Origin: Escherichia phage EF3-1 | DNA length: 50,066 nucleotides | Sequence record: PQ571291 | Direction: 5' to 3' (one strand) | Shown: positions 49,133 to 49,211 of the stretch, piece after piece | How positions within the stretch are numbered: position 1 is the stretch's first letter | Layout of the letters: every line of letters starts with the position of its first letter | The notes under the pieces: model-generated | What the model was told of the DNA's origin: nothing | Seen by the model: only the letters and a program-made list of their open reading frames with translations | The model's database searches: none | Position numbers and translations under genes: made by a program

Positions 49133-49160
49133 TTGACGCTTTAACAAAAAGTGCTATTAT
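49133..49160 (+). promoter_or_regulatory. sigma70-like promoter upstream of major capsid gene (TTGACG-16-TATTAT)
   Basis: TTGACG 49133-49138, TATTAT 49155-49160; overlaps inverted motif copy TTAACAAAAAGTGCTATT (49141-49158). Confidence 0.45.
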
Positions 49161-49164
49161 TGAA

Positions 49165-49191
49165 GCCGTGAACATAATCACGGCTTTTTTA
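49165..49191 (+). terminator. rho-independent terminator immediately upstream of major capsid gene
   Basis: GCCGTGA-ACATAA-TCACGGC hairpin followed by T6. Confidence 0.65.
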
Positions 49192-49211
49192 TTAACTAAG
49201 GAGAAGTAATC

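Follow-up and report, generated by a model that had tools for sequence, protein, structure and literature searches.

The window analysed here (the whole stretch of 50,066 nucleotides (nt) from Escherichia phage EF3-1, PQ571291, to which all coordinates refer) is one complete, circularly wrapped genome of ∼49,925 bp, whose ends overlap by 141 nt (1-141 = 49926-50066, repeat family D7). The genome is of the T1-like siphovirus type, genus Tunavirus, family Drexlerviridae, and the region of interest, the junction between the genes for a cement (decoration) protein and the major capsid protein, is 98.4-98.6% identical to that of Shigella phage ISF002 and Escherichia phages SA12KD, Chapo and DELF2. 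The cement-protein gene (48353..49120; features are on the plus strand unless stated otherwise) encodes a C-terminal Ig-like domain (Pfam Phage_cement, 4e-16; Big_2, 3e-6) and ends with the stop codon TAA at 49118-49120. The major capsid gene (Pfam PF09950 Major_capside, 1.5e-48; ‘major head protein’ in relatives) starts with the ATG at 49212, 8 nt after AAGGAG (49198..49203), which we read from the sequence as its Shine-Dalgarno element, and extends to 50066 and then, past the window end, through 142-246. Three elements are packed into the intervening DNA: (i) a promoter-like sequence TTGACG-16-TATTAT (49133-49160); (ii) an inverted copy of a 21-nt repeat that fills the spacer of this promoter; and (iii) a hairpin with a T run that ends ∼20 nt before the capsid start codon. 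An earlier note, made from the sequence of this DNA alone, had pointed to all three, and each proved to be present as described; what found no support is the regulatory role that it proposed for the terminator.

The hairpin, GAAGCCGUGA-ACAUAA-UCACGGCUUU (49162-49187), begins 42 nt 3′ of the stop codon of the co-directional cement-protein gene and comprises ten pairs (five G-C) around a 6-nt loop. The T run occupies 49185-49190, with GAA of the 5′ arm pairing with its first three T, so that the predicted intrinsic terminator or 3′-end structure, including its U6, spans 49162..49190. With a G+C-rich stem, a short loop and a U tract directly 3′, the element has the form of an intrinsic terminator, and when folded by itself the hairpin reaches −14.6 kcal/mol (z = −6.3). 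To follow it through the family we used a scan of IMG/VR with the capsid protein that returned 65 Drexlerviridae loci (numbered with the prefix L), which range in capsid identity from 100% down to 54% and take in T1 (L014), TLS (L034) and the Klebsiella phages of the genus Webervirus (L055 group). Pairing is maintained in 26 distinct hairpin sequences, with stems as different as GAAGCCGTGA/TCACGGCTTT, GAGGCTGTTA/TAACAGCCTT, GTGGGCGTTA/TAACGCCTAT and GGGGCTGT/ACAGCCCC. In a 16-sequence MAFFT alignment (A2), 90.7% of cells are paired, which is a lower bound because one row (L023) is out of register and two more (L037 and L053) carry a bulge or internal mismatches; seven of the ten pairs are altered on both sides (22 cells). 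None of 500 shuffles reached the observed values, and sliding the partner columns reduced pairing to 22-62%. Native combinations of the two arms average −12.0 kcal/mol, compared to −7.2 kcal/mol for chimeras between lineages (permutation p ∼1e-4, with relatedness uncontrolled). G.U cells outnumber A.C cells by 12 to 4, the latter coming mostly from out-of-register rows, which indicates that the selected structure is that of the plus-strand RNA.

The U tract is less uniform than the stem. Six or seven U follow the hairpin in Tunavirus, and the tract is also good in L032, L035 and L019, but only 0-3 U are found in L023, L040, L046 and L050, and tracts such as TTTAAGGGAG, TTAAAAGG and AAAAAGGAG are short or absent in several lineages. 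The hairpin therefore cannot serve everywhere as a canonical intrinsic terminator. The four U-poor lineages, in which the covariation holds almost without a U tract, lend some weight to the alternative that the hairpin is chiefly an element of RNA stability or processing, either a barrier to 3′ exonucleases on the upstream mRNA or a processing site, as do the comparable U-less hairpins at most of the other promoters of the phage. We nevertheless consider this unlikely as the chief role, because the six or seven U after the stem in EF3-1 and the whole Tunavirus clade make a canonical terminator and because Webervirus has a canonical terminator in its stead. The two roles are not mutually exclusive, and although termination may be strong here, it is not the only conceivable function of the hairpin.

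The promoter-like sequence consists of a −35 hexamer TTGACG (49133..49138; five of six matches to TTGACA) and an extended −10 element (49152..49160) in which TG (49152-49153) and a C precede TATTAT (49155-49160). Its ten matches to the 12 consensus positions make it the best promoter-like site between 40 and 50 kb in our consensus scan, and it fits what is expected of a sigma-70 promoter: a −35 hexamer that starts with TTG, a spacer of 16 bp (within the usual 16-18 bp), a −10 hexamer whose second base is A and whose last base is T, and the TG. In addition, an A-tract (49124..49128) lies 5-9 nt upstream of the −35 hexamer, and we read it, by reference to established promoter architecture, as a putative proximal UP-element-like subsite. 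The match in itself is at chance level, as a score of 10 or more out of 12 is reached by 11 sites genome-wide compared to 12.8 ± 3.5 in dinucleotide shuffles (three of the sites also have the TG, compared to 0.9 in shuffles), and the case for a promoter therefore rests on conservation.

That conservation is extensive. The block upstream of the capsid gene is present at every locus that reaches the capsid start, in 46 distinct sequences, from which 26 representatives were aligned (A1). It reads cATAACAyAAAAA, 3-5 nt, TTGnnn, a spacer of 16 nt (17 nt in three lineages) and TG-C-TAnnnT, with the cement-protein stop codon lying within cATAACA. Invariant in all 26 sequences are four A of the A-tract (A14-A17 of A1, corresponding to 49124-49127, conserved in every lineage despite differing ends of the upstream gene), TTG, TTA.CAA, TGCTAT and the last T of the −10 hexamer. 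Among relatives, positions 4-6 of the −35 hexamer vary (TTGACG, TTGCAC, TTGAAC, TTGACC, TTGATT), as do positions 4-5 of the −10 hexamer (TATTAT, TATCAT, TATATT, TATGAT, TATTCT), whereas the TG is always kept. In all, 63 relatives preserve the A-tract, TTG, a spacer of 16/17 bp, TG and TAnnnT. The variable positions are thus those that sigma-70 promoters tolerate, and the block as a whole has the information profile of such a promoter. Moreover, in L022, L032 and L066 a 1-nt insertion breaks the core of the repeat (ATAAGCAC) and yields a 17-bp spacer while TATCAT stays intact, and in L051 the repeat is gone (11/16), yet TTGACG and a GATATT hexamer are kept, so that promoter and repeat are separable in nature. 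L051 (IMG/VR uncultivated virus genome (UViG) 2974611450, 50,414 bp; 2390-2500) is a natural variant without the repeat core, in which the TGCTATTAT of the capsid promoter is swapped for TGTGGATATT, resembling a DnaA box (TGTGGATAA), and the U tract is altered to TTTTTCGGG. Judged from these sequence features, the element is probably a real promoter of the host sigma-70 type, and a strong one.

We weighed this against the view that there is no functional promoter at the junction, the match being a by-product of the repeat plus chance, the hairpin a leaky intercistronic terminator, and the capsid gene being expressed only by read-through that starts far upstream. Besides the chance frequency of 10/12 matches, this view can draw on the fact that TGCTAT(T) of the −10 region belongs to the repeat itself, on the authors of the TLS study having called no promoter at the homologous site under strict criteria (PMC11447400), and on the organization of every other late junction. 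Late terminators (a G+C-rich hairpin followed by T5-7) were found at 253-275, 589-609, 3652-3671, 44616-44637 and 48308-48333, each abutting the next Shine-Dalgarno element and ATG without a promoter, so that late expression must use leaky termination or an antitermination mechanism. Yet the invariant positions outside the repeat (TTG, the last T of the −10 hexamer, the A-tract) are where a promoter needs them, the positions within the repeat that a −10 element tolerates do vary, and the insertion that breaks the repeat keeps promoter spacing and hexamer. Only one of the 26 repeat copies in the window, the capsid copy, has a good −35 hexamer and completes a TAnnnT on the opposite strand. The capsid gene is also the sole late gene with its own promoter having a canonical −35 hexamer (other late −10-like sites are without one), and with several late terminators in series a capsid supply that relied on read-through only would be attenuated repeatedly. 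A promoter-less junction is thus rather improbable. Directly 3′ of the capsid gene lies a further terminator (253..281; ten pairs, five of them G-C, T5 tail; annotated in OL960582, MT682715 and T1), and with a promoter on its 5′ side and this terminator on its 3′ side the gene forms a one-gene unit, suited to the most abundant protein of the virion.

The relative position of promoter and hairpin bears on what the hairpin can do. Sigma-70 holoenzyme starts transcription at the sixth to ninth nt after the −10 element, usually at the seventh or eighth, and favours a purine that follows a pyrimidine. Applied to EF3-1, this geometry predicts a start window at 49166..49169, with G49168 (preceded by C) as the likeliest start. 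The first paired base of the hairpin lies 1 nt after the −10 hexamer in EF3-1 and 0-2 nt after it in all lineages with an intact hairpin, an offset that is constant across the family. The predicted start window is consequently part of the 5′ arm, and the terminator would be missing from capsid transcripts. By folding, an RNA that begins at 49168 keeps just a 4-bp stem (GUGA/UCAC) in an otherwise A/U-rich, weakly structured leader of ∼44 nt, and the window as a whole leaves a remnant of 4-6 bp; across lineages, the structure that is left after a start at the seventh nt amounts to −1.5 to −7 kcal/mol, compared to roughly −10 to −15 kcal/mol for the full stem. The outermost pairs, 1-3 nt after the −10 element, also covary (AU/GC/GU/UA at pairs 14-37 and 15-36) and, as they cannot be part of RNA from the capsid promoter, the hairpin must act in RNA that comes from upstream, presumably read-through RNA of the cement-protein gene. 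Within the loop we noted CATAAT (49173-49178), a near-consensus −10-like element at ∼+6 to +11 of the predicted capsid RNA, which reads TATTAT in the TLS clade and is weak or absent in other clades. Elements of this kind cause sigma-dependent promoter-proximal pausing at lambdoid late promoters.

These data bear directly on the proposal of the earlier note that a terminator inside the leader implies attenuation or antitermination, with polymerase from the capsid promoter terminating at the hairpin unless a factor or an alternative fold intervenes. Attenuation requires a transcription start no later than 49162-49165. An attenuator, or a full stabiliser of the 5′ end, needs a hairpin that starts at or after +1, at least 6 nt further 3′ than observed, and by canonical geometry the hairpin does not lie wholly 3′ of the start in any lineage, the usual start at the sixth to ninth nt stripping most of the 5′ arm in each. 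Neither did we find a fold that competes with the hairpin (folding of 49100-49230 and of leaders from 49165, 49166 and 49168), a match in Rfam (the whole window at the gathering score; 49050-49300 at E <= 1) or a credible open reading frame (ORF) or leader peptide within the capsid leader in the ORF list. What can be said for attenuation is that promoter and terminator adjoin, that a start at G49165 or C49166 would place a stem of 6-7 bp (∼−9 to −12 kcal/mol) and the U6 at the 5′ end (for G49165 a 7-bp, G+C-rich stem of −11.9 to −13 kcal/mol), which could terminate or stabilise some transcripts, and that there is precedent in Pseudomonas phages, in which ONT-cappable-seq mapped 42 terminators in 5′ untranslated regions (UTRs) just past promoters, mostly giving short or long transcripts (PMC10914365). 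Those terminators resemble the present one in lying immediately 3′ of a phage promoter; they differ in that they are part of the mapped transcript and give short RNAs, while the geometry in EF3-1 puts the start inside the stem (PMC10914365). The covariation of outer pairs that lie outside such a transcript also speaks against control of this type. Of the fallback offered in the earlier note, a hairpin that stabilises the 5′ or 3′ end of processed transcripts, the part concerning 3′ ends fits the upstream transcript, and the part concerning a full 5′-end stabiliser of capsid mRNA falls with the start site inside the stem.

The Webervirus genomes (L055-L064; KingDDD, L069) provide a natural REARRANGEMENT: their capsid promoter, TTTGACC-16-TATTCT, is not followed by a hairpin, and a canonical GGGGCTTCGGCCCC-T5 terminator is placed upstream of it. 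L054 has both a terminator upstream of the promoter and a decayed hairpin downstream. The promoter and terminator modules thus work in either order, as is predicted if the upstream unit is terminated and transcription restarts for the capsid gene; a model of leader control does not predict it, and the same gene behind the same promoter has a hairpin-less leader in Webervirus. Together with the geometry, this leaves attenuation at the capsid leader a quite improbable explanation.

With a probability of roughly 60%, as judged from sequence, we read the region as a compact junction of two late units, in which the capsid promoter overlaps the terminator of the upstream unit and the start site lies inside the stem. 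In the proposed mechanism, the host-type sigma-70 promoter would give the capsid gene a strong transcript of its own, starting at ∼49167-49168, with a leader of ∼44 nt and an end at 253-281. The hairpin and U run (49162-49190) would act on polymerase or RNA arriving from the upstream head genes (portal, protease/scaffold and cement proteins), terminating these transcripts or protecting their 3′ ends. Transcripts from the capsid promoter, without the full 5′ arm, would escape termination, so that the terminator, though 3′ in the DNA, would be functionally upstream of the promoter. The spacer repeat, centred at ∼−20, a place that is normally repressive, would be an operator that ties the capsid promoter to a factor reading the other 25 copies. 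Promoter activity, start position, upstream termination and any role of the repeat are what we infer here.

Several points weigh against the overlapping junction, in addition to the chance-level match, the U-poor lineages, the alternative start sites and the absence of a promoter call in TLS that are mentioned above. The covariation statistics derive from related sequences and are inflated by shared ancestry. Polymerases that arrive from upstream cross the promoter before they stop, so the order of the elements gives no shield from occlusion. The T1 RefSeq record has neither a promoter nor a terminator annotated here. Finally, literature searches for transcript maps of T1-like phages or Drexlerviridae found no transcript 5′ or 3′ ends for any T1-like phage (together with searches for the motif they yielded only the TLS re-annotation), so promoter activity and start site are derived from consensus geometry.

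Taken singly, the components belong to known kinds, and annotations of them already exist in near-identical genomes. OL960582 (vB_EcoS_SA12KD) has a promoter (6667-6694) and a terminator (6697-6730) annotated upstream of the capsid gene, and the same promoter and terminator are annotated in MT682715 (vB_EcoS_Chapo); they are the counterparts of the two EF3-1 elements, at the homologous position in a region of ∼98.5% identity. The annotations are consensus or software predictions, given without interpretation, and they do not mention that the spacer holds the repeat, that the start would lie inside the stem or that the elements are conserved across the family. For TLS, Supplementary Table S1 lists direct repeat DR7 on the negative strand (15044..15024) and terminator T35 (15049..15069) before gp36, the major capsid gene (15087), with no promoter (PMC11447400), i.e. 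the same inverted repeat and then the same hairpin just upstream of the capsid gene (PMC11447400). The promoter-gene-terminator arrangement of the capsid gene also matches, as far as the summary in PMC11447400 goes, the one-gene module of the ‘transcripton’ idea that is attributed there to the T1 genome paper (2004); relative to the module as summarised, EF3-1 differs in that the terminator at its upstream boundary lies 3′ of the −10 element and overlaps the start site. Only the embedded inverted repeat has real discovery potential.

The repeat, AATAGCACnnnTTGnTAAAA, occurs in 26 copies in the window at a threshold of at least 13 matches to its 16 defined positions (for example 34981-35000, 36039-36058, 37326-37345, 38708-38727, 39228-39247 and 40601-40620 on the plus strand, and 29103-29122, 29603-29622 and 31234-31253 on the minus strand). 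It corresponds to a direct repeat of 21 nt, aaATAGCACnnnTTGnTAAAA, that was described for TLS and is said to be present in T1, Rtp and Rogue1 as well, and the function of which is listed as an open question (PMC11447400). The copy at the capsid promoter, AATAGCACTTTTTGTTAAAG on the minus strand (49139..49158), matches at 15 of the 16 positions. In filling the spacer it also covers the TG and the −10 hexamer up to its fourth nt, and we regard it as a candidate operator. It scores 13-15/16 in 44 of 46 distinct relatives, and Webervirus carries the other canonical subtype, the GAA form (AATAGCACGAATTGCTAAAC), again at 15/16; this conservation together with the switch of subtype indicates selection as a genuine repeat instead of passive descent. 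Only this copy and that at 2979-2998 are antiparallel to both flanking genes. The TLS repeats are said to run with transcription, ∼76 nt upstream of the start codon (PMC11447400). The text of that study states that the repeats follow the direction of transcription, and its Table S1 has DR7 on the negative strand before the plus-strand capsid gene (PMC11447400).

Many of the other copies keep a fixed spacing to a −10-like hexamer, a link that is not made in the TLS paper (PMC11447400). In 16 of the 26 EF3-1 copies, 17 of 24 in SA12KD and 12 of 18 in Webervirus KingDDD, repeat position 40 is exactly where a TAnnnT hexamer (mostly TATAGT) begins (binomial p 1e-20 to 1e-26). As no −35 hexamer was found at the proper distance from the position-40 hexamers, the repeat would represent a promoter element at a fixed upstream distance, at ∼−51 to −31. 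Its quasi-palindromic core TAGCA-N5-TGCTA is centred at ∼−42, a position like that of class II activators. The core may bear some likeness to the two arms in the consensus for E. coli Lrp (YAGHAWATTWTDCTR). The spacer copy fails this rule, its minus-strand slot reading TATGAC. We considered whether each repeat, read as its reverse complement, might provide a divergent promoter in general, and rejected this, as only the capsid copy has a −35 hexamer and completes TAnnnT.

The repeat-type promoters mostly carry an inverted repeat as well (36058-36090, 37345-37378, 38727-38760, 39247-39280 and 40620-40655; on the minus strand 29570-29603 and 30085-30118). In some, the arms flank the −10 hexamer, which then lies in the loop, with the 3′ arm ending at ∼−1; in others the −10 hexamer is separated from the repeat by the hairpin. 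The arms differ among copies and stay complementary, and one compensatory change between orthologues gives GGGGTT/AACCCC in EF3-1 and GTGGTT/AACCAC in SA12KD. These regions average −12.7 kcal/mol compared to −5.1 kcal/mol for random 39-mers, are mostly without a U tract, and several are called terminators in OL960582. The other antiparallel copy, 2979-2998 on the minus strand, opposite to the late genes, has TGaTAAGAT in its position-40 slot (TGaTACGAT in SA12KD) and is a complete repeat-type promoter directed toward the major tail protein gene through a hairpin at 2916-2935, which may yield an antisense transcript.

Late copies, by comparison, occupy odd places. Those at 42432 (before the gene for the terminase small subunit) and 9166 (before the tail fibre gene) lie just 3′ of a −10-like element, and that at 6918 is displaced upstream by 11 nt from the usual position, its −10 element being separated from it by a terminator. 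This suggests that one factor could have opposite effects on middle and late promoters. The three regions (6918-6973, 9118-9185 and 42392-42451) also contain near-identical terminators (CCCGCCTTGCGCGGG-T7/8), each followed after 4-5 nt by TAGAAT, TATAAT or TAATAT.

As to the factor, the only candidate for a repeat-binding protein that we found is sub-threshold: a conserved ORF on the minus strand between primase and helicase (19487-20011) with a Cro/YdaS-like helix-turn-helix (Pfam P22_Cro, 23 bits compared to a cutoff of 30.2), which is 54% identical to gp29 of KingDDD, annotated at the corresponding position as ‘putative transcriptional regulator’. Copies of the repeat lie at both of its ends (19485-19504 and 19951-19970). 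We tentatively, and at low confidence, consider the spacer repeat to be a working operator in a family-wide circuit, in which one factor, possibly this Cro-like protein, would activate ∼18 promoters without a −35 hexamer from ∼−42 and hold back the capsid promoter from ∼−20, as well as, perhaps, two late promoters (42.4 kb and 9.1 kb) that have the repeat just 3′ of their −10 element. Phage lambda cI bound at OR2 activates PRM from ∼−42 and represses PR where it overlaps the core promoter. By analogy, cI may serve as a model of how one dimeric helix-turn-helix protein could activate the ∼18 repeat promoters and repress the capsid promoter. If the circuit exists, it would time capsid production, the overlap with the terminator letting upstream and capsid transcription be set independently, and it would provide the Drexlerviridae repeats with a function.

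The layout invites comparison with another late promoter of lambda. At PR′, a Q-binding element is followed by the terminator tR′, which is located ∼190 nt downstream and fully transcribed, and antitermination needs the Q protein and a sigma-dependent pause. A Q-like switch at the capsid promoter, in which a factor bound to the repeat would load onto paused polymerase and make it resist the terminators of the late operon, would be in keeping with the shared features (a strong late promoter that has a conserved element between its −35 and −10 hexamers, a terminator close by, and promoter-less late genes separated by more terminators) and with the −10-like element in the hairpin loop. It is very improbable all the same: the EF3-1 hairpin overlaps the start site and would be incompletely transcribed from the capsid promoter, some clades lack the loop element or have it in weak form, the genes that precede the capsid gene meet the same terminators without such a promoter, and the same repeat sits near −42, an activator-like position, at ∼18 other promoters. 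In addition, Pfam scans of ∼50 ORFs (not all ORFs, and remote homologues could be missed) revealed no Q homologue, no other antiterminator and no regulator beyond the one sub-threshold Cro-like hit. It is barely credible that the inverted repeat acts as a minus-strand promoter of the repeat type and sends an antisense transcript into the cement-protein gene, for although the slot at repeat positions 40-45 (49119-49114) reads TGtTATGAC, with TGTTA conserved in relatives, and the other antiparallel copy has a TGaTAAGAT there, the hexamer is without the essential final T in every lineage (TATGAC, TATACA, TATGCA, TATGCG) and the bases that are conserved belong at the same time to the stop codon and the plus-strand A-tract region.

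Two further observations concern genes elsewhere in the window. The cement-protein gene is one of two paralogues (47817-48293 and 48353-49120; both Pfam Phage_cement) with a terminator between them; they have a 50-nt stretch in common at 76% identity (47865 / 48389), and the Big_2 Ig-like domain is added in the second. A small early ORF on the plus strand (34255-34515) matches Pfam PF25180, ‘Phage antiviral trigger protein Gp54’, at 2e-35.

The block described here, a compact, probably strong E. coli promoter with an insulating terminator, may be relevant to the engineering of T1-like and Webervirus phages for therapy. The attenuation reading of the capsid leader is corrected. Among the non-coding blocks of Drexlerviridae, the capsid promoter ranks with the most conserved, from Tunavirus to the Klebsiella Webervirus. 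It is also the one place where the repeat is both inverted and embedded in a canonical core promoter, and so lends itself to telling apart the readings of the repeat as UP-element, activator site or repressor site. In the reading that we prefer, the junction would be an instance of genome compaction, with a promoter laid over the preceding terminator such that each population of polymerases would meet only the signal intended for it and the most abundant protein of the virion would have its own promoter-gene-terminator unit. The wider question that it touches is how T1-like phages time their genes while using the unmodified polymerase of the host.

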